64,000 bases of DNA from an uncultured Candidatus Binatia bacterium (GCA_965214605.1 OZ243961.1:1103008-1167007), one strand, 5' to 3'. Numbered from the stretch's first letter, positions 1,858 through 48,511 are shown. Program-made: numbers and translations. The notes: a model not told the origin generated them from the letters alone.

Positions 1858-3996
1858 ATGACCAAACGAGAAAGACACACTGGCTGTGGTGAGCAGATGA
1901 CCCTGCTCACCCGGCGCGCCAGGGACGACCTCGGCACGCTAGTCGGCCAGTTGACAAGCGCCCAAGGAGACCGGCGCCGTGAGCTGCAAGCCCTTCTCCA
2001 ACGCCGGCTGACCGATCCAGGCCAGTTGGCAGACAGTTCGGTCCTGCCGGCTGACCACCCGCTGAGACGCCAGGCAAGGATTGTTCAGCAGCTGTTCAGC
2101 GCCGTCACTACTGCTCCGCTGTCGACGGGCGCCCTGGCCGGCTTAGACACCATCCCGCGCCAATCTCCGCTGGCACCCTGGAAATTACTCATCCGCGCAC
2201 TTGATGCGTTTTATCGCCGCGCAGATGAACTGGCTGAAGCCAATCTGGCCCGGATCCCGGCCGATTCCGGTCCGGGCCGTTTGGTCCCAGTCCTGCGAGC
2301 CCTGCTGAGTAAAACCGATACACTGGCTGAGTCGGAATTTCCCGACCCCAGCGCTCATGTAGCGGCCCTGTTGGAGCAGGTCAGCGCCGGCAATCACGCC
2401 CGACGCAGCCAGCTCAGCCAGGCACTGCTCTCTCATAACGAAAACCCTCCCCGCGCCACCCTACAACCCTTCCTCCCGTGGCTGGCCACTCTTCCGGCTA
2501 GCCATAGACACACGTTTATAAGGACGATGTTACACCACTGGCAACGGAATGGGGGGCTGTCACCCGGCCTCATAGACCTCCTCAGCCATCAAAGCATTGA
2601 CCCCGATATGCAGCGTCTTGCTGCCCTCAGCCTTGAACACCGCCACTGGGACGGGGCACTGCTGCTGTGGGACGCCTACCTCAGCGCGGCTCAGGCCGCA
2701 GGGCGGCTGTCTCCGAGCAGCCCGGAAACCGTTCATATTCTGCTGCATATGAGCGATCTGTTTCCGTCCGCTCCGCAGCAGATACTAGACGATTTAGGCC
2801 TGGCTTCTGAACAAGCACTCCGGCACCTGATCCGCACCGGCCAGTTTCCGGCCGTCTTTGATCGGGCCGCCCTGCTTGACCGGGCACGTCAAGCCGTCGG
2901 GGCTCTCTCGCCTCAACTCGGAGCACGGGTCTTTCGGGCCTCACTCGCCTACCATGAGCGGCGCGATGTCAAACGGGCCGAGGCTGAGGCCGAAGCCTGG
3001 CACAGCGCCTATCCGCACGATCTTGAGCCCCTGCTCTACCTGCTTGAAACCGCAGAAAAGCGTGGCGCAGTCCGAAAAGCGCTCGATTTTGTAGCCAAAG
3101 CAGAAGCCCTGAACCGCCTCCATCCCCAGCTACGGCACAGCCGGTTTCGGCTCCTGTTATCAAGAGCCGAGCGGCGGATTCAAGAGGCCAAATCCACGCT
3201 GGCCTTGGCCGATCTGGAACGCCTAGCCCAAGAACCACGAGCCAACGAGGGCGATACCAAAGCTTATCTGTTGTCTCTCAACTGGGCGCTCGCCCACAAA
3301 ATGGGCGATGCCGCCAGCGCCCAAAATCTGGCGCAGACCTTAGCCAGAACGGTCAACAATCAGGCTCTGCACGCCCTGATCCTCGCCACTGTGAGTGAGA
3401 TTACCAAAGTCTCTCGCCCTCAATGGTCAGCGAAAATTCCGTCCCTCCAGGCGATTGAGGGGCTGGCGCGGGCATGTGCCCTGTTTGGGGCGCTGAACCA
3501 TCGGGTAGCTGTACCGGACAGTTTCGTGAGCCAGGTTGAAAAAAACCTGGACAAGGCCACTGTGGCTCAGTTGCACGCCCTGTGTCACGGCGGCTTAGCC
3601 ATCGGGCAGCCAACCCTGACCTATATCGCTGCCGGTCACGGGCTGCGCTACCCAGAACCCCACCTGCACCGTTTTCTGTTGGCTCGCGGCAAAAGCCTAG
3701 GGGGAATACTCACCCATGCTCACCAAACCCGAGCCCGCAACTGTCTACGGGCGGCCCGTGAGTTGGCCAACCGGACACGGGATAAAGAGGCAACGGACCA
3801 GGCAGCGGCAGCACTCGACACACTGCCGACCTGGGGAGAGATAGAGGCCGTGCTGCTTGCTGCTCCCCACCACCCGCCTAGTCAGGCACAAATAGACCTG
3901 GCTCTTGAGGTCGAACGCCGTCATACTACGCCGCCACGTCTGGCCGGCCACGCGGCCGCTCACAGGCCCACTTTATCACAAGAAGCCTTGCGATAG
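1858..3996 (+). CDS. hypothetical 712-aa helical (TPR/HEAT-like composition) protein, first gene of the atypical Hsp70 cluster
   Basis: Long uninterrupted ORF, Leu/Ala/Arg-rich with no catalytic motif seen. Co-directional with and immediately upstream of the J-domain gene. Confidence 0.65.
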   Translation: MTKRERHTGCGEQMTLLTRRARDDLGTLVGQLTSAQGDRRRELQALLQRRLTDPGQLADSSVLPADHPLRRQARIVQQLFSAVTTAPLSTGALAGLDTIPRQSPLAPWKLLIRALDAFYRRADELAEANLARIPADSGPGRLVPVLRALLSKTDTLAESEFPDPSAHVAALLEQVSAGNHARRSQLSQALLSHNENPPRATLQPFLPWLATLPASHRHTFIRTMLHHWQRNGGLSPGLIDLLSHQSIDPDMQRLAALSLEHRHWDGALLLWDAYLSAAQAAGRLSPSSPETVHILLHMSDLFPSAPQQILDDLGLASEQALRHLIRTGQFPAVFDRAALLDRARQAVGALSPQLGARVFRASLAYHERRDVKRAEAEAEAWHSAYPHDLEPLLYLLETAEKRGAVRKALDFVAKAEALNRLHPQLRHSRFRLLLSRAERRIQEAKSTLALADLERLAQEPRANEGDTKAYLLSLNWALAHKMGDAASAQNLAQTLARTVNNQALHALILATVSEITKVSRPQWSAKIPSLQAIEGLARACALFGALNHRVAVPDSFVSQVEKNLDKATVAQLHALCHGGLAIGQPTLTYIAAGHGLRYPEPHLHRFLLARGKSLGGILTHAHQTRARNCLRAARELANRTRDKEATDQAAAALDTLPTWGEIEAVLLAAPHHPPSQAQIDLALEVERRHTTPPRLAGHAAAHRPTLSQEALR

Positions 3997-4012
3997 GATG
4001 TGGTGCTTAACA

Positions 4013-4321
4013 ATGAAAAACACCGCCATGCTCAACCCTTTTGTCGTTCTCAATGTTAAAGACACCGCCGATGATGAGACCATTCGGGCGGCCTATGTGC
4101 GAGCCCTCAGGCATTCCCCACCAGACCGCGATCCGGAAGGATTTGGCCGGATTCGGGATGCGTATGAAGCGATTCGGGATGCCGAAAAACGTCTCGCCTA
4201 TCGCCTGTTCGGTCCGTTGCCGCTCGCCCGAGTTGAGGACCTATTTGATCTCATACCAGACGAACGGCGGCATCTCGGTCCAGAGCCGTGGTTAAATATC
4301 CTGCGGGGGGCACAACGGTGA
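4013..4321 (+). CDS. small J-domain protein (DnaJ-like) with non-canonical HPD region
   Basis: MKNTAMLNPFVVLNVKDTADDETIRAAYVRALRHSPPDRDPEGFGRIRDAYEAIRDAEKRLAY follows the J-domain helix II-loop-helix III pattern. An alternative ATG lies at 3998. No G/F region or Zn-finger region. Confidence 0.75.
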   Translation: MKNTAMLNPFVVLNVKDTADDETIRAAYVRALRHSPPDRDPEGFGRIRDAYEAIRDAEKRLAYRLFGPLPLARVEDLFDLIPDERRHLGPEPWLNILRGAQR

Positions 4322-5016
4322 GCAGGTTCACTGCGGACCAACGTCAACGTCTGCTAGAGACTGTCCAATCCTGGCTTGACGAACTCGATCAGGCAGAGCC
4401 GGCCCCGTCGGGTCTTTCCCCTGACATCATGGCTTCACCTGAGCCAGTTCCCGATCTGTTTTCTGTACTTGGGCAGCTGAGCGCGCTGACTCGTGAGACC
4501 CAGCTGCAAGGCCGGGCCACCAACCGTCTGCACACCGAACTTGGTCAGACCCTAGACGGGCTGGCCGAGCAAGTTGCCCAAAGCGAGACATCCACCTCTG
4601 GCCAAGCCTTAGTCCGCCAACTGAGCCAGGCACGGCGCGAGACGCGCACCGAACTCGTATCCGAGCTGCTTGAGGTCCGCGACCACCTGAGCCGTAATCT
4701 GATCGAGGCCGAGCGGCGGCTCACCAACTTGAGCGGCCTACGTGCCCGTCTTGGCCAACGTCCGGTGCTCGAAGCCCTCGTCAAAGGCACGCATCTGGCC
4801 CAGGAGCGGCTCGACGATCTGCTGCGGCGGCTGGATGTGTACGAGATTGCATGTCTTAACGCGGCATTCGATCCAAATCTGATGCGAGCAACCGCAGTCA
4901 GTCACACCACCACTGCAGTTCCAGGCACGGTAATCGCAGTTATCCGTCCCGGCTACACCTGTAACGGCCAGGTCATACGTTTTGCCGAAGTAAAGGTGGC
5001 CAAGAACAAGGAATGA
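4318..5016 (+). CDS. GrpE-like nucleotide exchange factor
   Basis: C-terminus AFDPNLMRATAV...PGTVIAVIRPGYTCNGQVIRFAEVKVA matches the GrpE beta-domain signature (FDP..H.A, GY...g..lR.A.V.V). The GTG start overlaps the J-gene stop as GTGA. Confidence 0.7.
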   Translation: MSRFTADQRQRLLETVQSWLDELDQAEPAPSGLSPDIMASPEPVPDLFSVLGQLSALTRETQLQGRATNRLHTELGQTLDGLAEQVAQSETSTSGQALVRQLSQARRETRTELVSELLEVRDHLSRNLIEAERRLTNLSGLRARLGQRPVLEALVKGTHLAQERLDDLLRRLDVYEIACLNAAFDPNLMRATAVSHTTTAVPGTVIAVIRPGYTCNGQVIRFAEVKVAKNKE

Positions 5017-5048
5017 GAAACGGCGGAGAAAGACGCTGACCAACGACC

Positions 5049-6917
5049 ATGACACATGACACTATCCTTGGCATTGACCTGGGCACCACCACCTCCGAGG
5101 TTGCGGCCATCGTCGGTGGCGAAGTCCAGGTGTTGGCCGTTGACGGCGAGCGGACGATGCCTTCGGTCGTCGGCCTCACTCCAGACAACCGTATCCTGGT
5201 TGGCACCCCGGCTCGGAATCAATACCCCTTGTATCCAACCCGCACGGTGAAGTCGATCAAACGCCTGATGGGCTCCTCTCAACAGGTCGTGCTGGGCCGG
5301 CACAGCTATTCCCCACCAGAAATCTCAGCCCTGATCCTACGCAGACTGAAAACACGCGCTGAGACTGTCCTGGGCCGCTCACTCCCCCGAGCGGTTATCA
5401 CCGTGCCGGCCTATTTCTCCGACGCCCAACGCCAAGCCACCCGAGACGCCGGCCACATCGCCGGCCTGGAGGTCGTCCGTATTCTCAATGAACCGACCGC
5501 CGCAGCCCTGGCCTATGGCGCCGACCGGCGGGGAGAGCGCACAGTCCTGATTTATGACCTGGGCGGAGGGACGTTCGATGTGTCCCTGGTCCAGGTCCGG
5601 GACGAGATTACCGAGGTCATCGCCAGTCACGGCAACAACCACCTGGGCGGTGATGATTTCGACCAGCGGTTGTTGGACTGGGTCCATGACCAGTTTGTCC
5701 AGTCGGGCGGCCCAGACATTCGAACCGATCCCATAGCTATGAGCCGTCTATTATGTGCGGTTGAGGAGGCCAAAAAGCGCCTGAGCTTTGAGCCCTACAC
5801 CCGTATTCGGGAAGAGCATTTGGCCGAACAAAATGGGGTCCCAGTCCACCTTGATCTGGAAATATCTCGGGCGGACTATGAACTGTTGATCCAGCATCTG
5901 GTGGAAACCACCCTGGACAGCGTGCATCAAGCACTGAACGACGCAGGGAAGCGGCCGGACCAGATTGACGAGGTGCTGCTGGTCGGTGGCGCGAGTCGTA
6001 CGCCGCTGGTATCCCAGCTTCTTGAAGACAAGACCGGCTTAGTCCCCCACCAAGACCTCCAGCCCGAGCTGTGTGTCGCCTTTGGGGCCGGGGTGTTAGC
6101 CGCCCGCCAGGCGGGCCACAATATTGATCGGGTTTTGGTCGATATCTCGCCCTACTCTTTTGGTCCGTCGCACCTTGGTTTTCTGAACGGTAGACCGTAT
6201 GAACACTGTTACCACCCGATTATTCGGCGCAACACGCCCCTGCCAGTCAGCCGCACCGACTCCTACCATACGCTGGTTGACGGGCAAGCCGACTGGCAGG
6301 TATCCGTCTATCAGGGCGACGATCCAGACGCCTTAAACAACATTTTGGTTGGACGCTTCTGCGTGGAAGGACTCTCCCACGTGCCGGCCGGCAATGAGAT
6401 GCTGTGCCGTATGGAACTCGATCTGGATGGAATTCTCAAAGTCACGGCTATTGAGAAGCGCACCGGTTTGGCCCGGCACATTACGATTGAGGGAGCTACT
6501 ACTGCCATGTCAGCCGAGGATCTGGCCCAAGCCCGTCAGCGTACGCACGACTTATTGGCCCAGGACTGCACAGACACGGCCGAAGCGTTTGAGCAGGAGG
6601 AGATACATTCCGGCCGGACCGAACTGACGACATACGAGAACGCTGATGGCCACCAGAGCCGGATGAAACCAGCGTTGACGTTTGTGGAAACCACCCAGGA
6701 CCGCGAAAGCCAAGAGCTGCGCCAACACGTGTTTGCCGCCGGCCGCCTGTTAGAGCGAAGCCGTCGCCTGCTGAAAAAAATGACGCCTGAAGACCAACAA
6801 GAGGCGCTCGAGCTGCACCAACAAATCGAGGAGGCGCTGCGGATACAGAATTGGGACTATCTCCACACGGCAATTACCGAGCTGACCGATCTGCTGTTTT
6901 ATGTCGAAGAAGCCTAG
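5049..6917 (+). CDS. Hsp70-family ATPase (DnaK paralog)
   Basis: GIDLGTTTSEVA, DLGGGTFDVS and VLLVGGASRTPLV motifs plus a substrate-binding beta-domain (VYQGDD...ILKVTAIEKRTG). The C-terminal ~130 aa are unlike the DnaK lid. Confidence 0.9.
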   Translation: MTHDTILGIDLGTTTSEVAAIVGGEVQVLAVDGERTMPSVVGLTPDNRILVGTPARNQYPLYPTRTVKSIKRLMGSSQQVVLGRHSYSPPEISALILRRLKTRAETVLGRSLPRAVITVPAYFSDAQRQATRDAGHIAGLEVVRILNEPTAAALAYGADRRGERTVLIYDLGGGTFDVSLVQVRDEITEVIASHGNNHLGGDDFDQRLLDWVHDQFVQSGGPDIRTDPIAMSRLLCAVEEAKKRLSFEPYTRIREEHLAEQNGVPVHLDLEISRADYELLIQHLVETTLDSVHQALNDAGKRPDQIDEVLLVGGASRTPLVSQLLEDKTGLVPHQDLQPELCVAFGAGVLAARQAGHNIDRVLVDISPYSFGPSHLGFLNGRPYEHCYHPIIRRNTPLPVSRTDSYHTLVDGQADWQVSVYQGDDPDALNNILVGRFCVEGLSHVPAGNEMLCRMELDLDGILKVTAIEKRTGLARHITIEGATTAMSAEDLAQARQRTHDLLAQDCTDTAEAFEQEEIHSGRTELTTYENADGHQSRMKPALTFVETTQDRESQELRQHVFAAGRLLERSRRLLKKMTPEDQQEALELHQQIEEALRIQNWDYLHTAITELTDLLFYVEEA

Positions 6918-6935
6918 CCACGGAGACTCTCCAGC

Positions 6936-7304
6936 GTGTCTGACAGCACTCCTTCTTCCTCCGGCACTCCTCGTTCATCACTGCAAGAGGCACATTGTCC
7001 AACCTGCCGGGCAGCTTGGCGTGGGGCGGCTGTCTGCGCCCGATGTGGGACCGACCTAGACCCGCTCATGCGTCTGGCAACAAAAGCCTGGCAGCTACGT
7101 GAGCGGTCCCGTCAAGCCCTAGGTGCAGAGGACCGCGCTGCCGAAGCCCTGGCCTGGGCCGAGGTTGCCTGTCAGCTCCAGGCAACGACACGCGGCCTGC
7201 GCTTACTAGCCTTGGCCTTGCTTGCCAACGGTGCCGTGGCAGAGGCAGTGGCGATGATTGAGCAAATCTCCAAGGGGGAGGAGGCTCGCTGTACCCGCGT
7301 ATGA
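6936..7304 (+). CDS. hypothetical protein with N-terminal zinc-ribbon (CPTC...CARC)
   Basis: GTG start 18 nt after the Hsp70 stop. CPTCRAAWRGAAVCARCGTDL four-Cys motif followed by a helical Ala/Leu-rich tail. Confidence 0.5.
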   Translation: MSDSTPSSSGTPRSSLQEAHCPTCRAAWRGAAVCARCGTDLDPLMRLATKAWQLRERSRQALGAEDRAAEALAWAEVACQLQATTRGLRLLALALLANGAVAEAVAMIEQISKGEEARCTRV

Positions 7305-7958
7305 CACGTCGGCGACATGCCCACGCCTGTCTGCCGGAGACAGGATAAACATCCAGCGCGCTTGCCTGTCTTGGAATGATATCTGCGTTCGCGCCGCCGT
7401 ATTTGCCAACGAGGGCCAGACGCAGAGCTTCTCTAACGCCCCCTTCCATGTCTGCAGCGTCCAGTGCCGCTCGGCGGGCCCACTACGGGACACGTGTCAC
7501 CAAGCTCGACAACAACCGCGGCGATACCGCCTGTGCCTCGTGCTGACGCAGACGTTTTACCACTCTGGCGAGTCCGATTTGGCAGTCCTTGAACCTGCAG
7601 GAGCGCGGTCTGCAGAGTGGAGGGCTGGTATGCGCACGCGCCTTGACGTTGAAGTCATTGAGGTCGCGACGGCCCCAGATGCCCCAGGCCGCGAAGATCA
7701 AGCTGAGGGGCTCATTCGATAGCGGTCTCTGCCTAGTCGTGTGCCGAGAAGAGGGGTCGACATGCGTGACGAACACGGGAGCTCTGCAAACGTCCGGCGT
7801 TGAGACGCGTTTCGGACTCAGCCTCATGGTGGATTGGTCACAGCCGGCGTCCTAATGAGGCGACGGGCCGTATCAGTCGCGCGCTGGACGCAGATTTCGA
7901 ACCCGCTGTCCATCAAGACCGGGCTTAACTGCGTCTTGGACGAGATGGGCAAACAGCC

Positions 7959-9173
7959 CTAATCCTTGAACTCAGGTAAAATCTCGCTGCCGAAAAGTTC
8001 GAGCTGGCGCTTGGCCTCGTCCCAGGGCATCAGGCCCTGGTCGAAAAACCAGCCGAACCATTCTATACTGCTGTTCTTGTGCAAGGCTTCGAGTTCACGT
8101 TTGACATCGTCCACTGTGCCGACCAGGGCGTACTTGGACTCGACCATGCGCTCGAAGGTATTTGGAACCGGGGTGGTTTCACCTGGAAAGCGATACGCCT
8201 CAAAAAAGCCAAATCCGGAGAAATACTCGATAAAGCCGGCGCCCTGACACGTTGCGCCTAAAGAGTAGGCCTGGGGGTAGGAATCGCCGAGGTGAACTGA
8301 CCGAAAGGCGCCCACACTCTGGCCAAGCGTGAGGTGACGGCCAACCTTGGCTGCTTCGTCACGGTAGGCTTCGCACAGCTCACGGAACGACGGTGGATGG
8401 GCAGTCAGAATCCAGGGCACGATATTCTCGGCCGCACACCAACGGATCGTTTTTTCACTGACCGAGAACGGTTGCCAGATCGGCGGATGGGGCTGGGTAT
8501 AGGGTTTGGGCACGACACAGATGCGCTGGACTACCCCGTTCTCGTCTACCTCGCCCTTGGCCCCGTATTTGGCGGTCCAATTTTTGGCTACCGGCCAGCG
8601 CTGAATCCCATGTTCGTAGGGAGTTGGAACCTCATAGTACTTTGTTTTGAAACGAATTGACTCTTGGGTCCAGGCCATCTTCATGATCTTGAAGACCTCT
8701 TCAAAAACCGCCCGGTTGTGGATGTCCACCTCTGAGCCGTCCATTGGTGCACCGGTCACATGATAATGCTGGCCAAGCACGTTCGTCCAGCGATCTTGAT
8801 AGCCCCGGGCAAATCCAGCCACAAAACGGCCCTTGGTCAGGTGATCCAGCACCGCGATCTCTTCCGCCACCCGAATCGGGTCCCAGGTCGGCAGGACCAG
8901 TCCCAGCGAGGCAAACTTAATCCGCTCGGTACGGGCGGCCAGATCGGTATACAGTAATAGCGGCGCAATGGAGGCTTCATAGCCTTCTGAGTGAAAATGA
9001 TGCTCGGTGGTCGACAACGCATCAAAGCCCAGGTCTTCAGCCATGTGGGCGATATCCCGCACCTCTTTTAGGAGGTCCTGATACTTCTCATTATCCCGGC
9101 CGATCGGCCGCAGCTTTTCACGCTCTTCAAATGTGGCTGGGATAGTCGGCAGCAAGAATAGATTAAATTTCAT
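7959..9173 (-). CDS. LLM-class (luciferase-like) flavin/F420-dependent oxidoreductase
   Basis: AGGAGGA SD 7 nt before ATG 9173. MKFNLFLLPT...DLGFDALSTTEHHFHSEGYE is the typical LLM N-terminus. Confidence 0.85.
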   Translation of the reverse strand: MKFNLFLLPTIPATFEEREKLRPIGRDNEKYQDLLKEVRDIAHMAEDLGFDALSTTEHHFHSEGYEASIAPLLLYTDLAARTERIKFASLGLVLPTWDPIRVAEEIAVLDHLTKGRFVAGFARGYQDRWTNVLGQHYHVTGAPMDGSEVDIHNRAVFEEVFKIMKMAWTQESIRFKTKYYEVPTPYEHGIQRWPVAKNWTAKYGAKGEVDENGVVQRICVVPKPYTQPHPPIWQPFSVSEKTIRWCAAENIVPWILTAHPPSFRELCEAYRDEAAKVGRHLTLGQSVGAFRSVHLGDSYPQAYSLGATCQGAGFIEYFSGFGFFEAYRFPGETTPVPNTFERMVESKYALVGTVDDVKRELEALHKNSSIEWFGWFFDQGLMPWDEAKRQLELFGSEILPEFKD

Positions 9174-9345
9174 ACGCGATCCTCCTGTGAGCCAAATGGT
9201 TAGGCCACCCTCTTTGGCTAGCATATGCACGCCGTTCCGTCATTAGGGGCGGTAGCGTCCAATCCGTCGCGCCCCTCTCCCGCATTGTTCTTCCCGTCCG
9301 GACAGGCTATAAGTCGGGGGGCGCGTCACAAACGGAGGGAATATA

Positions 9346-10499
9346 ATGGCGGATCAGCTACAACATGATTTGCTGCCACGGGCGAGCCACGATGAGCTCG
9401 CACGACAAAACTTTGTGCAAAGTCTGAAATTACACCTGGCAACAAAAATCGCCCCGGGCAATGAGCTTGTTTATGAAAAGCGGGCCAAACCCCGCTTTCA
9501 ACAACAGACAGGACGTCCGCCCAAAGACCGCCACGAAGTTCGCCGGAGCATGCGAGACGAGCCGTATTATCAGGCCTGGGGCTCACTGCAACGGACCAGT
9601 CAGGAGATGATGTGGGAGGCGGTCGACTCAAGCGTTGCGCGCCAGCTGCCTGAGCTTGTTGTGCGTGCCAGTCACAACGCCAAGCCCCTGGGCTCCTTAC
9701 GTCTCGATCCGGATCTTGCCATCCCAACCTATCACACGGCAGTCGATATTCACTGCCAACCCGGCGGCTATCATACTGAGTGCGGTCCGCAGGATGATGT
9801 GGCGGCTGGAGCGCTCTACGATCGCGCCGTCCATATCTACGCCATGAGCCGTCTGGGGACATTGAATGACGAGATGGGACAGTCGGTCGTGGTGTATTTG
9901 CAGCACCGCTATCCGGATTGCCGACCCACCCGAATCCTTGACATGGGCTGCACGGTTGGCCACAGCACGCTCCCCTATGTCGATGCCTATCCAGCGGCCC
10001 AGGTTTTTGCCATTGACGTGGGCGCGCCGGTGCTCCGCTACGCTCATGCCCGGGCTGAAGCGCTGGGCAAATGTGTTCATTTTTCGCAGCAAAACGCTGA
10101 ACGGACCACGTTTGCCGAAGCATCGTTTGACCTCATTGTGTCGCATATTTTGCTACACGAAACGTCGAGCAAGGCGCTCCGTAACATCGTTCGAGAAAGC
10201 TATAGGCTGCTCACTCCGGGCGGTCTGATGATCCACCAGGAGGTCTCCCAGTATCACGGCTTAGACCCCTACCAAGCCTTCATCCTTGATTGGGACACGT
10301 ACAACAATAACGACCGTTCTGGGGGACTCTGCGTGACACAGATCTGACCGCGATTGCTGTTGAAGCCGGCTTTGCCAAAGAGCAGGTCGTTGAGACGATG
10401 ATTCCGAGCGCCTTCCAGGTCAAAGGGCGCGCCCGACGTCTCCAGGCCGGCGACTTTGGCGGCAGCGGACAATGGTTCATCTTTGCTGCTACCAAATAG
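9346..10499 (+). pseudogene. class I SAM-dependent methyltransferase interrupted by a 1-nt frameshift near 10312
   Basis: ILDMGCTVGHS (motif I) and LLTPGGLMIHQE. The reading frame ends ...WDTYNNNDRSGGLCVTQI* at 10347. A shifted frame from 10314 reads PFWGTLRDTDLTAIAVEAGFAKEQVVETMIPSAF...FIFAATK* up to TAG 10497-10499. Confidence 0.7.
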
Positions 10500-10523
10500 T
10501 ACCAGGCTGCGGGGAAAAGAACG

Positions 10524-10856
10524 ATGACACGGACAGCCAAGGGCCAGCGTCCAGCCTTTTTTGACGACCCGCAGATTGACAAGCTGTTAGCGATAATCAT
10601 GGCTCTGGCCGGAGAAGTGAGCGTACTGCGGGAGCGGCTCGATACGGTCGAAAGACTGCTCGAGGCCGAAGGCCTCGTATCTCGTCGCAATATTGAAACC
10701 TACCGAGCGGACGCCGCCGCGGCTGTGGAACGAGAACGCTGGCGGGGAGAATATCTGGAGCGGATTCTGCGGGTTCTCCACCAAGAGCGGGAGACGATAG
10801 CAGACAGCAAAACGCTCCCATCCCACGAACGGGCGGTTCGCACCGGAACTTTGTAA
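10524..10856 (+). CDS. hypothetical small protein (coiled-coil-like)
   Basis: 110-codon ORF starting at an ATG, with charged heptad-like sequence. No recognised domain. Confidence 0.5.
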   Translation: MTRTAKGQRPAFFDDPQIDKLLAIIMALAGEVSVLRERLDTVERLLEAEGLVSRRNIETYRADAAAAVERERWRGEYLERILRVLHQERETIADSKTLPSHERAVRTGTL

Positions 10857-11518
10857 GAGCCAAGAGCGCAGTTTTGGCCTTTAACTTTCAGGATTTTCCC
10901 AATGTCTTTGATTCTCGGTGTTGACCTTGTCGGCACGTCGGCACATACACAAAGGCCATTTTTCGGCATCTCGCCCATCCTGACAGAAGGATGTCATCGA
11001 CCGACATCAGCATCCAGAATCGAGGTAATGCGCTATTTTTCCTTGATTTTCGAATAGCGACGAGGCGTGCATTGTCGTCTCCGATGCGCTTCAACGCGCC
11101 TGAGTTTCAGTCCGGTCGCTTGCGGTATGCTACGGTTCCATCCCCACCTGAAACAGGAACATTTACAGTTGACCAGGCACGGCGTCAGGCGGCGCTCGCC
11201 ATCGCCCGCATCAAGTACGTCGCGGAGCACCTGCCCAACGTCGGGGTAACCTTCGACAAGTTTCCTGTCGTCGCCCACGCATCGGGGCGCTCGACAAAAC
11301 ACAGCGCATCGGGCAGCGCCTCAACCCGAACTCAAGGACATGCGGTGGACCCTGCTGGGGATCCCGGAAGCCTCGGTTCCGAACACAGTATTGCCTTCTG
11401 CAACCTTATCGACTATAGTAGCCGGCGACCCAGCGAACCTACGTTACCAACCCGCCATTCTTCGGGCAGCCAAGTTTCTGTGGCGGCAAGAATATCGTCG
11501 AGCGAGGGCGGCACACCC

Positions 11519-12067
11519 ATGCGAATACGCCACTACTCCATAACGAAACGCCTCGTCTTCGTTGGGCCGTTTCTGTATGTGCTCGTGCTGGCGACGGCAT
11601 CCCTCACGGGGCGGGGAGAAATCTACCCCTTCTTTGCCTGGGACTTGTTCGCGGGGGTGCCGGCGGGGTGGGTCATCCAGACGCCCGCCGTGGTGGCGCA
11701 TCCGATGGACGACTCCCGAAATTTAGGGGGGGGGGGGGGACGCTGGGTCATTCCGTCCCCCGACCCCCGGCATTTGAAGGTGCTGCGCGAGGTCCTGCAC
11801 GCGTGTGAGCGCCGCGCGGCCCCCGCGTGCCGGTCCGCCGTGGCCCGCCTGCTGCTCCCCCTCGTCGTTGACGGCGTGGGGAGCGGCGCCGTGGAGTTCA
11901 GTCTCGTCTGGGCGGCCGTCGATCTGCGCGCCCTCCGGGAGGACATCTGGGCGCTCGCCGCCGGCCGCACGCAGCGCATGGACTATGCCCGGGTCGCTAC
12001 GGTGCTCTCGCGGTGGCGCGCGGCCGCGGCCGGCGGCCTGCACCGGGTTGATGGGGGCACCCCGTGA
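11519..12067 (+). CDS. hypothetical membrane-anchored protein containing a G14-encoded Gly run
   Basis: ATG 11519. MRIRHYSITKRLVFVGPFLYVLVLATASL is a TM anchor, followed by EIYPFFAWDLF. The stop overlaps the next start as GTGA. The tracked 358-aa ORF (10991..) probably over-extends upstream. Confidence 0.5.
   Translation: MRIRHYSITKRLVFVGPFLYVLVLATASLTGRGEIYPFFAWDLFAGVPAGWVIQTPAVVAHPMDDSRNLGGGGGRWVIPSPDPRHLKVLREVLHACERRAAPACRSAVARLLLPLVVDGVGSGAVEFSLVWAAVDLRALREDIWALAAGRTQRMDYARVATVLSRWRAAAAGGLHRVDGGTP
11726..11739. repeat. homopolymeric G14 tract inside a coding sequence
   Basis: Counted directly: ...aatttag then 14 G then acgctgg. It encodes GGGGG in the current frame. Confidence 0.95.
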
Positions 12068-13416
12068 ACGCTGCGCGGCTGCAGGGCCGGCTCCGCAAGA
12101 CCCTCCTCCACGTGGAGACGGGGGAGCGGCGGCGCGCGGCCGACTTCTCGCGGGCCGCGCGCCACATCGCCGTGCTGGTCCGGTTCTATTACATCTTCGT
12201 CGCGTACCTCCTCTTCGGCCGGTTCAAGGTTGCGAATTTGCTCCACGGCATTCCCCCGCCCGCGCCGTTGTGGCCCCTGGACCTGATGGCGACAGTCGCG
12301 GGCTCCGCGTGGCTCGCGTGGGGCGAGCTCCTCACGGCGGCGGGCGTGGGGGTGGCGCTGCTGGCGGCGCTGTGTCCGGGCGTGCTGCTCTTCCGGCTTG
12401 GGGTCTTCGTCTATCTCTTCATCGGCATCGCGCTGGCCAACTCCTATGGCGCCATCAGCCATGGGCGCCATCTCTTCCTCTATGTCTCCTTCGGGTTGTT
12501 GTGGCTGCCGGCGGCCATCGGCCGCCCGGAGCGCATGGCGCGCCGGGAGGCGATGGCGTGCAACGCGGCCTTCTGGCTGACACAGGCACTGCTGCTGCTG
12601 CCCTACAGCCTCAGCGGCTTCTGGACACTCTGGCGCAGCAACCTCCAGTTGGTGTCCCTCGACTCCTTCGTCCGGCTGGTCCTCGCCGGCCTGCTCGAAC
12701 AGGCCGGCGGGCCCCTCCCGCCGCTGGTCCCGTGGCTCGCCCAGTACCCCTCGGTCGGCCAGGGCTTGTATCTGGCGTTTTGCTATGTGGAAGGGCTGCT
12801 GCTCGTCAGTCTGTTCCGCCCCCACTTGCAGCGAGGGTTCGGCCTGGTCGTCATCGGGTTCCATCTCGGGACGCGGTGGCTGCTCGGCTTTGCCGCCGCT
12901 CCCTACCTCGTGCTCTGGTTCCTCTTCCTGGTGGCTTCGCCGTTCGCCGCGGCCCGGTTCTCCCCGGTCGCCACGGCGCGCTCGCTGCCGCTCCTCGGCC
13001 TCCCCTTCCGCGCGTGGGCGCGCTGGAGGCGCCCGGAGAAAGGGGCGGAGAAGGCGTGGCTGGTGTATGATGGCGAGTGCCCGTTCTGTTCGCGTTACTC
13101 ACGCATGGTCGATGTGAGAGATGCCATCGGCGAACTCATACTCGTGAACGCCCGCGATGGGGGGCCGATCGTGGACGAGATCAAGGCCCTGCCTTGGGAT
13201 CTCAACAGGGGCATGGTACTGAAACTGAACGGACGATACCGGTTTGGCGACGAGGCCCTGCACACCTTGGCGCTCCTGTCGCGGAAGAATGGCGCATTCG
13301 GCATCCTGAACCGTCTCGTGCTCGGTTCGCGCGCGGTCGCATGGTTCGCATACCCGCTGTTGAAGCTCTGCAGGAGGCTGGCGCTGATGGCGAAAAGGGT
13401 TCCGGTCCTGAAGTAG
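12064..13416 (+). CDS. fusion protein: polytopic membrane domain (possibly HTTM-like, unverified) + C-terminal DCC1-like thiol-disulfide oxidoreductase (DUF393)
   Basis: About 330 aa with multiple hydrophobic spans. Then WLVYDGECPFCSRYSRMVD carries the DxxCxxC motif that defines the DCC family, and the rest of the C-terminal domain is DCC-like. Confidence 0.75.
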   Translation: MNAARLQGRLRKTLLHVETGERRRAADFSRAARHIAVLVRFYYIFVAYLLFGRFKVANLLHGIPPPAPLWPLDLMATVAGSAWLAWGELLTAAGVGVALLAALCPGVLLFRLGVFVYLFIGIALANSYGAISHGRHLFLYVSFGLLWLPAAIGRPERMARREAMACNAAFWLTQALLLLPYSLSGFWTLWRSNLQLVSLDSFVRLVLAGLLEQAGGPLPPLVPWLAQYPSVGQGLYLAFCYVEGLLLVSLFRPHLQRGFGLVVIGFHLGTRWLLGFAAAPYLVLWFLFLVASPFAAARFSPVATARSLPLLGLPFRAWARWRRPEKGAEKAWLVYDGECPFCSRYSRMVDVRDAIGELILVNARDGGPIVDEIKALPWDLNRGMVLKLNGRYRFGDEALHTLALLSRKNGAFGILNRLVLGSRAVAWFAYPLLKLCRRLALMAKRVPVLK

Positions 13417-14110
13417 GAAACTCTTCGTAACGTTCACCTTCGCGACGGGGATCACCGACGCTACTGCTTGATGACGAAACCTTCATCAAGCGGGGAGATG
13501 CAGCGAATGCTGGCGGAGGGCATTGCGTCCGAGGACCGGCGGATTGTCGATCTGACGGTGCTGGATCTAAACGTTCAGTCGCCGCAGCACGGTCCCGACC
13601 TTCGGTGGGTGCAGGCTCACCCGTGGAGCTCAACCCGCCCCATCGCCGAGGTCCGTGCCCTACAGCGAGTATTGATTTCATGTCACGCCCAGGTCCGATT
13701 TCGCCCGGAGGACGTTTGGGAATAACCTCGGGGCGGAATGAATGGTTGGTGAAAGCCATGGAGAATTATATTGAGATTGCGCCTTAGGTTCACGGTCGGT
13801 CCCCGTTGATGGCCGTGGGCCGTCACAAGCGGGAAGAGGCGCAGGAATGGTTGGCGGCGTGTTTCCGGTGTCCGGCGTATTCGCTAGGCTGGCGTCGGTC
13901 GGGGCGGGTCTGCAACCGTTCCGGATGATCGATGGGAGGGGGCAAAAGGACCTGACGCCGCCCTCAACCGGCGTCAAGCCGGTGAAAGAATCGTCATCGA
14001 GAACCGCCGTGCGCTCGACGACAACGCATGGCGGCGAGCGTTACCAGCCTCTTGCGGGACCTCAATTCGATTGTGTATGATGACACCGACACGGTCACCC
14101 GTACGGCCCG

Positions 14111-14143
14111 ACCGAACAGTCACCAGAATCGTAACTGTTCGGT
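14111..14143. promoter_or_regulatory. perfect 10-bp inverted repeat ACCGAACAGT-N13-ACTGTTCGGT about 140 nt upstream of the hydantoinase A gene
   Basis: Read directly from the sequence. It lies in the AT-richer non-coding DNA preceding ATG 14281. Operator-like symmetry; the binding factor is unknown. Confidence 0.3.
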
Positions 14144-14280
14144 GACCTGTATGTGGAGAACGCAGACATGCACAGTTACGATGTTGATCGAATCCGCTTG
14201 CGGAATGCTTACGCTAACGGAAGTTTGCAAATGTTACTAGAATTTTTGTTCTTTTAAAAGAATAATGAAAACAATCTGTT

Positions 14281-16341
14281 ATGAGCTTCACAGGATCCGA
14301 TTACCGCATCGGAGTTGACGTAGGCGGCACCTTTACAGACCTGCTACTTTTTGACCAACAAACCGGCCACCAGGTCAGGGCCAAGACCCCCTCGACTCCA
14401 GACGATCCGTCGGTCGGCGTGCTGGCAGGGATTGATAAGATCTGTCGGGCGGCCCAGATCCCTGCGGCCCAGATCACCCACATTATGCATGGCACGACCG
14501 TAGCAACCAACGCAGTCCTGGAAGGCAAGGGTGCCCGGGTCGGCCTGATTACAACCGAGGGGTTCAAGCAGATCCTGCACCTGGCCCGCTCGTGGACGCC
14601 GGGTCCGCTGGCAGGCTGGATTACTATGGAGAAGCCCGATCCGCCTGCCGCAATTGAGTACACCCGAGAGGCTAAGGAGCGGATCGACACCCACGGCAAT
14701 ATTGTCACCCCGCTCGACGAGGATGCGCTGCGAGACGCGCTAGACGACTTGGTCGGTCAAGCTATTGAAGCCCTCACCATCTCCCTGATTAACTCGTATA
14801 CCAATCAGATTCACGAAAAGCGGATTAAAGCCATTGCCCAGGAACTCTATCCCGATCTGCCGGTCACTGCTTCCTCTGAGGTTCTACCCGAGTTCCGTGA
14901 GTATGAGCGCACCCTGACCGCGGTGATGAACTCCTATGTCCGCCCTACCGTTTCGGTCTATTTACGGAATTTCGCCGATCAGTTGATTGATCACGGGCTA
15001 CGCGCAGAGGTGAATATCCTGCGCTCCGACGCGGGTCTGATGACCTTACGCATGGCCCAAGAACGGCCGGTGTACGCCGTCATGTCGGGTCCGGCCGGTG
15101 GGGTTGCAGGAGCGCTGTTTACCGCCACCACAGCCGGCTTTGGTAATATTCTCACCCTGGATATGGGCGGGACCTCAACCGACGTCGCGCTGTGTCAGAA
15201 CGGCACGCAGACTATCGCCCGCGAGACAACACTGGGCTATTTTCCAATCAAAGTTCCCTCGGTTGATGTACGCAGCATTGGGGCTGGGGGTGGCTCGATT
15301 GCCCATGTGCCGGAGATTACGAATGCTCTGCGGGTTGGTCCGCAGAGCGCAGGGGCAGAGCCGGGGCCGGCGTGTTACGGTCGGGGCGGAACCCAACCAA
15401 CGGTGACAGACGCTAATCTTGTGCTCGGCCATCTGCCCCCTCGACTGCTAGGCGGTGAGATGCGTCTGGACGAAGAGGCCGCGCACGCTGCGGTTGAGAG
15501 CGTAGGCCGCAAACTTGGTTTAGACGTCTATCGGGCCGCGCAGGGCATTGTGGATATTGTCAATGAGAACATACATGGCGCGTTACGCCTGGTCTCAGTG
15601 CAACGCGGCTATGACCCGCGCAATTTTGCACTCGTGGCTTTTGGTGGTGCAGGTCCCCTCCACGCCAACGCGGTGGCCAGCCTAATTGGCTCATTCCCTC
15701 TCATCATCCCCCCCGCACCCGGGATACTATGTGCCACCGGCGATGTGTGTTCCGACTACCGTGAAGAGTTCGCTCGGACCGTACTGCGGACCCTGGACCA
15801 GCTGCCGGCGGCTGAGGTTAAACAGTTGCTCCAGGAACTCGGCAGCGAGGCCGCCGGCTGGCTTGAGCGCGAGGGCATTCCCCGCTCCCAGCAGGACATA
15901 TTCTATAACGCCGACATGCGCTATTTCCGCCAAGGCTACGAGCTGCCGATCGTCATTACGCTCGAAGACTTACAGGCACAGGGGATCGGCATCCTAGCCG
16001 ACCGCTTCCACGCTTTGCACGAACAGTTGTACCGCTTTCGGCTCGACGCGGAGTGCGAAATCGTCAACCTGCGGGCCGTGGCTCTGGGTAAAGGGGCGCG
16101 CTTCAGCCTGAACGCAGCGGACCTCGACGGCCCGGACGCGGCCCATGCCCAAACCGACGAGCACCGGACTTATTTTGACGGCAATTTTCTGCCCACACCA
16201 ATCTATGATCGGTTCAAGCTCAGACCCGGTAACCGGCTCACCGGCCCAGCCATCGTTACTGAAATGGACTCGACCACCGTCGTCCTGCCGCACTGTACGG
16301 CTGAGGTCGATCGCTACGCCAATATTTTGGTTCGACCGTAG
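14281..16341 (+). CDS. hydantoinase A / oxoprolinase family protein (HyuA-like)
   Basis: YRIGVDVGGTFTDLLL N-terminus, LDMGGTSTDV, FGGAGPLHA. 686 aa. Confidence 0.9.
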   Translation: MSFTGSDYRIGVDVGGTFTDLLLFDQQTGHQVRAKTPSTPDDPSVGVLAGIDKICRAAQIPAAQITHIMHGTTVATNAVLEGKGARVGLITTEGFKQILHLARSWTPGPLAGWITMEKPDPPAAIEYTREAKERIDTHGNIVTPLDEDALRDALDDLVGQAIEALTISLINSYTNQIHEKRIKAIAQELYPDLPVTASSEVLPEFREYERTLTAVMNSYVRPTVSVYLRNFADQLIDHGLRAEVNILRSDAGLMTLRMAQERPVYAVMSGPAGGVAGALFTATTAGFGNILTLDMGGTSTDVALCQNGTQTIARETTLGYFPIKVPSVDVRSIGAGGGSIAHVPEITNALRVGPQSAGAEPGPACYGRGGTQPTVTDANLVLGHLPPRLLGGEMRLDEEAAHAAVESVGRKLGLDVYRAAQGIVDIVNENIHGALRLVSVQRGYDPRNFALVAFGGAGPLHANAVASLIGSFPLIIPPAPGILCATGDVCSDYREEFARTVLRTLDQLPAAEVKQLLQELGSEAAGWLEREGIPRSQQDIFYNADMRYFRQGYELPIVITLEDLQAQGIGILADRFHALHEQLYRFRLDAECEIVNLRAVALGKGARFSLNAADLDGPDAAHAQTDEHRTYFDGNFLPTPIYDRFKLRPGNRLTGPAIVTEMDSTTVVLPHCTAEVDRYANILVRP

Positions 16342-16704: not shown

Positions 16705-17400
16705 ATGACAGTAGCCTCCCCCCTTCTCCCCGACCCAATAGCCAAGCTGGTCGCTGGCGCCTTAGCCTTCCGCCAGGACGAATACGGAGCTGGCAGCAGC
16801 CTCATGCCCCGTTTGGCCGCTGGCCAGCAGCCCCACGTCCTGATGATTGGATGCAGCGACTCGCGCGTTGATCCGGCCCTACTCTGCGGTACAAGGCCTG
16901 GCGATCTATTCGTTGTTCGCAATGTCGCTAACCTAGTGCCGGCCTATGACCAGCGCGACAGCCTGGGCCAGGGGGTGCGCGCAGCTCTCGAATATGGCGT
17001 GAAAGCGCTGAAGGTTTCACACATCGTCGTGCTCGGCCACTCCCACTGCGGCGGCATCCGGGTCCTGATTGATACAGCCCGAGGCAGAGCGCCTGCATTT
17101 GAATGTATCGGCCCATGGCTCAGCCTGGCCGGCGATGTCTGCGACCGAGTGTTGAAGCAGCTGGCCGCGGATTCCTCAAAACATGTGACCACAGAGCAGC
17201 TGCCAACCTACGCTCCGCTGGTCGAGCGCCAAGCCGTCCTGCACTCTCTTCACAACCTCCGCACTTATCCCTGGATCAGCACCAGAATCGCCAGCGAGAC
17301 ATTGAGCCTACACGGCTGGTGGTTTGATCTCGATTCCGGGCGGCTATGGACGACCCAAGCGCCGGCTTCGGACAAGCTCACCCTGCTTGAGGCCGAGTGA
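16705..17400 (+). CDS. beta-class carbonic anhydrase
   Basis: IGCSDSRV and GHSHCGG zinc-ligand motifs. 231 aa. Confidence 0.9.
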   Translation: MTVASPLLPDPIAKLVAGALAFRQDEYGAGSSLMPRLAAGQQPHVLMIGCSDSRVDPALLCGTRPGDLFVVRNVANLVPAYDQRDSLGQGVRAALEYGVKALKVSHIVVLGHSHCGGIRVLIDTARGRAPAFECIGPWLSLAGDVCDRVLKQLAADSSKHVTTEQLPTYAPLVERQAVLHSLHNLRTYPWISTRIASETLSLHGWWFDLDSGRLWTTQAPASDKLTLLEAE

Positions 17401-48449: not shown

Positions 48450-48511
48450 AGCTGTTCTCCTTGAGAAGGGTTCTGAAATTCGAAATGTTGTATCTACACA
48501 AAAGTGAGGCA

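Follow-up and report, generated by a model that had tools for sequence, protein, structure and literature searches.

A horizontally acquired islet in the 5' end of a Candidatus Binatia hydA gene carries a two-gene membrane cassette of likely GGCX-like function

The gene hydA, encoding a hydantoinase/oxoprolinase A protein, is interrupted close to its 5' end by about 3.4 kb of additional DNA in a 64-kb stretch of the genome of an uncultured Candidatus Binatia bacterium (OZ243961.1:1103008-1167007, assembly GCA_965214605.1; hereafter the window, in whose numbering positions are given unless another locus is named). The explanation that we favour, and consider likely as a whole, is that this region is a small horizontally acquired islet in the hydA 5' end, whose cargo is a cassette of two genes, encoding a small membrane-anchored protein and a larger polytopic membrane protein, with a likely function akin to that of GGCX, the vitamin K-dependent carboxylase. 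The islet is real and recently acquired; its mechanism of entry we infer. Horizontal transfer, which the initial annotation had put forward from the nucleotide sequence alongside a chimeric join, is supported by three independent lines: a strongly outlying composition, absence from the loci of four relatives, and 78-87% DNA identity of the core to copies in unrelated lineages.

Results

The insertion lies inside hydA

The borders of the insert were set by comparison with the syntenic loci of four relatives (L007, L008, L010 and L011), whose HydA proteins are 88-92% identical to that of the window (14281-16341, plus strand). A search with this protein returned 86-92% identical proteins on long contigs, as well as a few more distant ones (80-82%), the sources of which name Candidatus Binatia or 'Deltaproteobacteria', and which by themselves point to a probably Binatia-like host. 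By blastn, the window matches L007 and L008 over 9335-10923 (a methyltransferase gene and an open reading frame (ORF) of 110 aa) and again from 14309 onwards (hydA, hydB, a major facilitator superfamily (MFS) gene and others); it matches L010 and L011 over 2083-9313 (a dnaJ-like gene, grpE, hsp70 and a luciferase-like gene), and once more from 14309. Positions 10924-14308 have no blastn match in any of the four loci.

The left border falls at the end of a relic of hydA itself. Positions 10902-10936 (plus strand) preserve the original start of the gene (ATG TCT TTG through GTC GGC AC, MSLILGVDLVGT), and align with the relatives' hydA start MSLTLGVDVGGT together with its upstream bases. The final 22 nt of this relic (10915-10936, plus strand, TCGGTGTTGACCTTGTCGGCAC) and the 22 nt at which homology to the relatives' hydA resumes (14309-14330, plus strand, TCGGAGTTGACGTAGGCGGCAC) carry the same hydA codons and constitute an imperfect direct repeat, identical at 18 of 22 positions, both copies of which have a C (GTTGAC) where the relatives have a T. 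The novel DNA thus delimited comprises 10937-14308 (3372 nt), and reaches 28 nt into the annotated hydA ORF. To its left, 10860-10936 is host DNA, made up of a terminator-like hairpin (10859-10878) and the hydA start relic; the hairpin directly follows the 110-aa ORF (10524-10856, plus strand), the last gene before the insert, which is kept together with the upstream methyltransferase gene in L007 and L008.

The insert breaks into hydA about 11 codons from the original start and, at its right end, provides a new in-frame start and nine codons (14281-14308), such that the gene, as judged by Pfam and by the relatives' sequences, is intact with a replaced N-terminus: the window HydA alone starts MSFTGSDYRIGVDVGG, and all nine relatives read begin M[SP]xxLGVDVGG. 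Together, the relic, the new N-terminus and the 18/22 repeat show that the insertion lies inside hydA. The initial annotation, which had drawn the region as 10860-14280, correctly placed an insert here, but its ends are corrected by the relic on the left and by the start of hydA homology at 14309 on the right; it was also correct in recognising no integrase, transposase or tRNA target at the borders, but not in reporting an absence of direct repeats.

Because the relatives' loci differ just upstream of hydA, showing three states in three groups of relatives, this spot is a rearrangement hotspot. In L010 and L011 the luciferase-like gene is separated from hydA by about 200 nt; in L007 and L008 the same place holds a second copy of 137 nt from the hydA 5' end, which is 84% identical to the real hydA of these relatives and is followed by two unrelated minus-strand ORFs.

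Several smaller features accompany the junctions. The sequence GTCGGCAC is duplicated in tandem at 10929-10944 (second unit 10937-10944), exactly at the left junction and the end of the hydA relic, possibly as a scar left by illegitimate recombination. Inside an AT-rich stretch, and 16 nt upstream of the hydA start now in use, positions 14252-14265 form a perfect 14-bp palindrome, TTCTTTTAAAAGAA, which the insert might have introduced as an operator or as a piece of a promoter. The new hydA ATG is not preceded by a Shine-Dalgarno-like sequence; L007 has GGAGGA.

The core is compositionally foreign

In 1-kb bins across the window, guanine-plus-cytosine (GC) content is 0.705 at 12001-13000 and 0.54-0.64 in all other bins, while in 200-nt windows it ranges from 0.65 to 0.765 over 11500-13100, against about 0.58 outside. 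For the ORFs 11519-12067 and 12064-13416, GC at third codon positions (GC3) reaches 0.85 and 0.88, respectively (0.91 in the membrane part of the latter), as compared with 0.56-0.73 for every other window ORF of at least 150 aa, including 0.66 for the MFS membrane protein. The tetranucleotide distance to the window average singles out 11501-13500 as the sole outlier (z = 6.1; next unrelated segment, z = 1.2), and the core departs further from the host trinucleotide profile than every one of 2000 random host segments of its size. By the same trinucleotide measure, the left flank of the core (10937-11459) does not stand out from host DNA (p = 0.18), and that on the right (13461-14308) does so marginally (p = 0.04).

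The compositionally and recently foreign part of the insert is consequently its central 2.0 kb (11460-13460, plus strand) only; judging by a GC3 of about 0.9, its donor had a GC-rich genome. These measurements bear out the GC-rich core that had been noticed by hand counts against neighbouring genes, the signature of the window being far from uniform with this region alone outlying, as well as the spurious long ORFs expected to result (11805-13070, plus strand, 421 aa; 11983-12864, minus strand, 293 aa) and the AT-rich right end (GC 0.435 at 14100-14299). The earlier description of the entire 3.4 kb as foreign-looking holds for the core, but not for the host-like left flank, and only marginally for the right.

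Nearest copies are found in other lineages

At the DNA level, the core aligns with L001 7406-9402 at 77.6% identity over 2016 nt, and window positions 12927-13444 align with the end of L002 (1-518) at 86.7% identity over 518 nt (both by blastn). The homology block starts 59 nt before the small gene and stops 44 nt after the large gene. L001 is a 78-kb contig with neighbouring genes that carry PSCyt2, PSD1 and DUF1501 domains, which we take to be typical of Planctomycetota, so that L001 is presumably planctomycete-like, as judged from this Pfam context only; L002 is titled as a metagenome-assembled genome of an uncultured Rhodospirillaceae, and a further homologue occurs in the actinobacterial sponge symbiont Candidatus Poriferisodalis. 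A search for taxonomic origin, as had been suggested, accordingly places the nearest copies in a planctomycete-like contig, a 'Rhodospirillaceae' contig and an actinobacterial symbiont. Scans for relatives of the cassette returned only L002 and L003, both partial, among genome contigs, and only L014 and L015 among metagenome contigs.

Composition elsewhere is varied. In L004 (7030-9359) the cassette has a GC content of 0.49-0.55 in a host of 0.66, while in L005 it equals that of the host and in L001 lies slightly above it. On these values the cassette is compositionally foreign in a second host too, in the opposite direction, as would be expected from a GC-poorer donor.

A cassette of two coupled genes

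The core encodes a small partner protein of 182 aa (11519-12067, plus strand; start confirmed by alignment of homologues) and a large protein of 450 aa (12064-13416, plus strand), whose genes overlap by GTGA at 12064-12067, in agreement with the translational coupling proposed at the outset. In seven loci in which the cassette was compared (the window, L001, L004, L005, L006, L014 and L015), the small gene immediately precedes the large one in every case, with a 4-nt overlap in four, and the surrounding genes differ in every one of the seven. The cassette thus appears to travel as a two-gene unit.

The large protein combines an eight-helix, GGCX/HTTM-like membrane domain (residues about 1-325) with a DCC1-like thioredoxin-fold domain (PF04134, residues 333-438), the latter scoring 35.7 bits against a gathering cut-off of 27.8 and retaining, at 13078-13089 (plus strand), the C-P-F-C redox motif of this family within D-G-E-C-P-F-C (D-x-x-C-x-x-C; Cys339 and Cys342). 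The reading of the two genes as a small membrane-anchored protein and a membrane/DCC fusion was right. The DCC1-like match is present in 34 of 41 family members. Ninety-nine close homologues are about 450 aa long; shorter ones (about 335-350 aa) are without the DCC domain. With a profile of the membrane domain, 1058 cluster representatives were retrieved at E <= 1e-3. Of the best 150, roughly two in three have a length of 300-360 aa, which leaves no room for a DCC domain; among ten distant representatives put to Pfam, two have a DCC domain and one is fused to MGDG-synthase/GT28. The membrane domain itself matches no Pfam model in 51 members (41 plus these 10).

Hydropathy and the positive-inside rule would place the N-terminus and the DCC domain in the cytoplasm and Lys188, a near-invariant residue of the family, near the outer face, a topology that we hold with low confidence. 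A thiol relay of the VKOR/DsbB type was considered and ruled out, since no conserved cysteine occurs in the columns of the membrane domain that are invariant or nearly so. Sequence comparison of the membrane domain with PDB gave chance matches only (PsaM and designed proteins), and a tblastn search of plasmids with the DCC domain found only stand-alone DUF393 genes in unrelated contexts, none with an HTTM neighbour. The MGDG-synthase/GT28 fusion mentioned above, P0331 (718 aa), joins the same membrane domain to MGDG-synthase and GT28 C-terminal domains, which hints at membrane lipid or glycolipid chemistry.

The small partner has an N-terminal transmembrane helix (residues about 7-31) followed by an outer domain of about 150 aa, and contains an invariant E-x-x-P-F-F-x-W-x-L motif just after the helix and a pair of cysteines (Cys96 and Cys104). 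It has no Pfam or NCBIfam match, and a homologue search with it returned nothing, probably owing to a word-index miss: L001 encodes a 58% identical protein. The cysteine pair is found in the six loci whose large protein bears a DCC domain and is missing from L015, where the large protein has none; with L015 (3300-4864, lacking both) as a single case, it is possible that the DCC domain and the partner cysteines co-vary.

Two further observations concern the small gene. It contains a G12 homopolymer (11728-11739), encoding a glycine run (LGGGGGR) that is not in the L001 copy; homopolymers of this kind invite slippage as well as errors in long-read assembly, but the reading frame is kept. In addition, the partners in L004 (7500-7956), L005 (7100-7985) and L006 (7560-8004) are longer; at the C-terminus they carry, once or twice, an additional repeat unit (D-V-Y...L-I-Y-V-K..C...F-F-L-H..P.D...L-P..R....F-D-N-L-D-F.F...C....L-P.Y.....T-G-Q) without a Pfam match.

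The membrane domain is predicted to share the fold of GGCX

A structure model of the large protein has a predicted local distance difference test score (pLDDT) of 86.9. Among 50 Foldseek matches listed for it, only GGCX chains reach probabilities of 0.63-0.89, with a template modelling score on the query (TMq) of 0.34-0.38; TMq for the others is 0.10-0.15. Two different structure-comparison methods single out GGCX, and the membrane domain is accordingly predicted to have the GGCX membrane fold. For sequence comparison, residues 51-417 of GGCX were checked and found to be 100% identical to the PDB chains. In a weak hhalign alignment between the family profile and GGCX, collinear over about 170 columns, family N132-H133 is paired with GGCX N159-H160, Y181..G185..K188 with Y..G..K218, and F266-H267 with F286-H287. 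In GGCX, Lys218 acts as the general base, and activity requires N159 and H160 (PMC12647623). The cassette is probably related to the vitamin K-dependent carboxylase, and the large protein would be a distant structural relative of its HTTM domain.

The comparison also has clear limits. GGCX shows no statistically significant sequence similarity to the large protein; its large luminal substrate-binding domain is missing from the large protein, to which a cytoplasmic-looking CxxC domain is fused instead; and neither a substrate nor a biosynthetic cluster lies near the cassette.

The window copy has threonine at position 188

Of 41 close homologues, 39 have lysine at position 188, as do 109 of 110 family representatives. 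In the window copy, codon 188 (12625-12627, plus strand) is ACA, encoding threonine, a single change from AAA, and the equivalent of the catalytic Lys218 of GGCX, with which this position weakly aligns, is absent. Within the family motif I-N-H-G, whose equivalence to GGCX N159-H160 comes from the same weak alignment, His133 is present in 106 of 110 representatives, and the window copy reads S-H (N132S). Because the key lysine is threonine, the window copy may be catalytically impaired, or else the base call may be wrong. Wholesale decay was considered and rejected, in that the window copy and its nearest homologue each deviate at 4 of the columns that are at least 80% conserved, and both ORFs are intact.

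Flanks of the core

The left flank (10937-11459) is unique DNA of host-like composition with no coding signature, and the right flank (13461-14308) is likewise unique and non-coding in appearance, with the AT-rich end that holds TTCTTTTAAAAGAA. Codon-position GC periodicity is absent from both (GC1, GC2 and GC3 are flat in all frames). No similarity was found to the other fetched loci, including the different insert of L007/L008 and with tblastx as well, or to the rest of the window, and no Rfam family was matched even at E <= 1.

A run of 176 stop-free codons (10991-11518) is in frame with, and runs into, the small partner gene; this ORF, the sole one in the flanks put to Pfam and NCBIfam, matched neither, and represents a chance ORF or else a gene that has eroded. 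Plasmid records contained no match to it (as protein) or to the right-flank DNA. The flanks contain no convincing intact gene, as had been observed from the outset. The single promoter-like match in the flanks was dismissed, one being the number predicted by chance.

Other variable spots in the neighbourhood

The block formed by the methyltransferase gene and the 110-aa ORF (window 9335-10923, L007 6754-8358) is 75.5% identical between the two loci by blastn, compared with about 87% for hydA and the genes downstream, and its upstream neighbours differ (the luciferase-like gene in the window, DUF1302/MMPL/BNR in L007); the block seems either to have moved or to be faster-evolving. Between hsp70 and the luciferase-like gene, L010 (5376-8543) and L011 (5543-8413) hold three genes (GmrSD_N; AAA_15/AAA_21/DUF3696; and one unannotated), where the window has only a 154-aa ORF (7258-7722). 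The three-gene set looks like a defence system, and the place is a second variable spot of the neighbourhood. A beta-carbonic anhydrase gene (window 16705-17400) separates hydA and hydB in the window and in L010/L011, and further extra genes lie between hydA and hydB in L010/L011 (L010 12243-15842). In L007 (12052-12677) and L008, hydA and hydB are adjacent and there is no beta-carbonic anhydrase gene; L007 hydB is split into two ORFs.

Discussion

As a genome event, the acquisition of a small islet by horizontal transfer is of an ordinary and well-documented kind. This islet is unusually cleanly delimited: the old hydA start, the new start and the duplicated target are all readable. We propose that it entered the first ten or so codons of the host hydA at a rearrangement-prone site, its right end supplying the new in-frame start and nine codons, while the old start stayed behind as a relic. 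Like other small horizontally acquired islets at rearrangement hotspots, it has an atypical composition, is absent from relatives, is flanked by target repeats, and disrupted and repaired the end of its target gene; it differs from them in that no integrase, transposase or tRNA target was found, and in that its foreign composition is limited to the central 2 kb of 3.4 kb.

Other accounts of the same DNA need to be weighed. An assembly chimera, in which the GC-rich block would be another organism's DNA mis-joined into the contig, was raised in the initial annotation, and could be entertained on the strength of the extreme composition contrast with the rest of the window, of the 78-87% identity of the block to contigs of other lineages, and of the origin of L001 in the same long-read metagenome assembly series as the contigs of the host's relatives. 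It is strongly argued against because synteny and reading frame are restored on both sides: the host gene order and orientation are the same to either side of the 3.4 kb, whereas a mis-join would normally break synteny once, and both junctions fall within a duplicated hydA motif, the left one bearing the relic start and the right one an in-frame restart of hydA. In addition, 0.5-0.85 kb of DNA of host-like composition separates the core from both junctions, and these flanks, together with the synteny and the hydA relic, disfavour a chimera to the point that we regard it as exceedingly improbable. We also think it very improbable that the genes are native, that is, ancestral, lost in relatives, and GC-rich for gene-specific reasons (amino-acid bias, codon bias or biased gene conversion). 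This would agree with the lack of any mobility gene found, with the host-like composition of the flanks, and with the variability of the site in relatives, so that deletions do occur there; but the excess lies at third codon positions (GC3 0.85-0.91) rather than at those set by amino acids, the MFS membrane gene stands at 0.66, the nearest DNA-level copies are in other lineages, and all four relatives' loci read (HydA 88-92% identical) are without the cassette at the site. As weak evidence in the same sense, no cassette-bearing contig has a length equal to that of any long contig listed for HydA relatives. Unlikely, in our estimate, is a decayed remnant of a larger integrative element that targeted the hydA 5' end and brought a replacement start, the flanks being its eroded genes and the cassette its surviving cargo. 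The insert is indeed bracketed by a target repeat and supplies a new gene start, L007 and L008 carry different DNA at the same site after their 137-nt hydA 5' duplicate (84% identical to the real gene), the flanks are non-coding and, as would be expected of older DNA, not foreign in composition, and 176 stop-free codons are left on the left side. Against this, neither the six-frame translations nor Pfam/NCBIfam analysis of the one flank ORF revealed an integrase or recombinase, tblastx against the other loci and the plasmid searches were empty, and the cargo of L007/L008 at the site is unrelated.

With horizontal transfer accepted, the function of the cassette could still be another than the GGCX-like one that we favour: the large protein could be a different polytopic membrane enzyme or a transporter (a lipid- or glycolipid-modifying enzyme, for example), with the DCC domain as a redox sensor or switch. 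Such an alternative, which we judge somewhat unlikely, draws on the failure of sequence-level HTTM tests, on the family member fused to MGDG-synthase/GT28 and its lipid chemistry, on the two thirds or so of the best 150 representatives that are too short for a DCC domain (Pfam having been run on ten), and on the lack of a carboxylation substrate encoded near the cassette loci. It does not account for the choice of GGCX by two structure-comparison methods, nor for the collinear fall of the near-invariant N-H, Y..G..K and F-H residues on GGCX catalytic positions, nor for the independent description of an HTTM-DCC protein with a small transmembrane partner, of the same architecture and nearly the same numbering (Lys189 against Lys188; 323-431 against 333-438).

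That description concerns an adjacent pair from Melghirimyces thermohalophilus (A0A1G6IAS5/A0A1G6IBF2), consisting of a DUF5819 protein, with a transmembrane helix at its N-terminus and then a domain, and a 447-aa HTTM partner whose DCC1-like domain spans 323-431; in the AlphaFold 3 prediction, the two form a complex resembling the whole of GGCX, with menaquinol near Lys189 (bioRxiv 10.64898/2026.08.19.745780). The cassette described here shares with it the adjacency of the genes, a small protein with one transmembrane helix and a domain of about 150 aa, and a polytopic partner of about 450 aa with a DCC1-like domain; the numbering (447 aa, DCC 323-431, Lys189) is close to that of our family (450 aa, DCC 333-438, Lys188), and the residues following the transmembrane helix of the Melghirimyces small partner, which contact the pocket, correspond to the segment that here forms the invariant PFF-W motif. 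The pair differs from our cassette in that the HTTM and DUF5819 models match no family member here, and in the threonine that replaces lysine in the window copy. Because architecture and numbering match, the cassette most likely works like the Melghirimyces pair, and by this analogy would be a branch outside the reach of the Pfam HTTM and DUF5819 models.

Several results weigh against the explanation that we favour, in respect of both function and transfer. Foldseek E-values for GGCX are not significant, and those of the hhalign comparison are weak (E = 0.15 and 0.084). Pfam HTTM (PF05090) has no match in 41 plus 10 family members even at E <= 1, a hidden Markov model of 110 family members scores against GGCX inside the range of 1000 shuffles, and the DUF5819 Pfam model matches none of 5 partner proteins even at E <= 10. 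An attempt to reach HTTM through the ten distant representatives also gave no HTTM match, the best 150 of the 1058 representatives all being strong members. Membership of HTTM is hence not found at the level of sequence; the likeness lies in modelled fold and motifs only. A single-sequence AlphaFold 2 model of the small partner has a pLDDT of 44.8 and is unusable, and no substrate gene or biosynthetic context is common to the cassette loci. The ratio of nonsynonymous to synonymous substitution rates (dN/dS) against the L001 copy is high, at 0.52 for the large gene (0.62 for the membrane part, 0.27 for the DCC domain) and 0.68 for the small gene, as compared with 0.084 for hydA against L007; this suggests relaxed constraint or, alternatively, inflation through extreme GC3 depressing dS. 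As to mobility, no integrase or transposase was found in the ORF list, the six-frame translations, or the Pfam/NCBIfam results for the listed ORFs; there is no tRNA target at the borders, the sole tRNA of the window lying at 48511; and no terminal inverted repeats at 10937 and 14308 were among the repeats found. With neither terminal inverted repeats nor a transposase ORF, the insert does not correspond to an insertion sequence or transposon. Finally, the flanks combine host-like composition with the lack of a homologue anywhere searched, and could be older, ameliorated remains of an element.

The putative function of the cassette would be quinol- and O2-dependent. The membrane domain would use membrane quinol and O2 at a site formed by the near-invariant Lys188, His133 and His267 at the outer face; the fused DCC1-like CxxC domain, probably cytoplasmic, would deliver reducing equivalents to the quinone or recycle them; and the small partner would pack its PFF-W segment and outer domain onto the membrane domain, replacing the luminal 'clamp' of GGCX. 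The DCC domain resembles DCC1-like/DUF393 oxidoreductases (PF04134) in scoring above the gathering threshold and in keeping D-x-x-C-x-x-C. Most of these are small, soluble, single-domain proteins (the plasmid matches, for example, are about 150 aa), whereas in the cassette the domain makes up the C-terminus of a polytopic membrane protein. The combination of a putatively quinone-handling membrane domain with a thioredoxin-fold CxxC domain recalls bacterial VKOR-thioredoxin fusions and DsbB, and suggests electron exchange between quinone and thiols; unlike those proteins, the membrane domain here has a different fold and no conserved cysteines, and no VKOR chains are among the structural matches listed.

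A bolder extension, improbable when taken as a whole, would make the cassette a member of a large family of bacterial split GGCX-like enzymes that no Pfam model covers and that comprises at least 1058 clusters at 50% identity. In these enzymes an HTTM-like domain would carry out quinol/O2 'base-amplification', the CxxC domain would recycle the quinone, and the partner would serve as clamp, so that one operon would hold a complete vitamin K cycle of its own; the cassette would move freely between phyla as a two-gene unit, and the window copy would have been caught soon after transfer with its catalytic lysine lost.

The cargo of the islet is of more interest than the event that brought it: a large membrane family without a Pfam model, with a fused DCC domain, paired with an anchored partner in all seven loci, and with the vitamin K-dependent carboxylase as its sole structural relative among solved structures. 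The lysine-to-threonine change in the window copy amounts to a natural 'active-site mutant'. If GGCX-like chemistry is true of this family, it would represent a widespread bacterial quinone-dependent carboxylation or oxygenation with a built-in reductant, and its spread across phyla as a two-gene unit would make it easy to test by heterologous expression.

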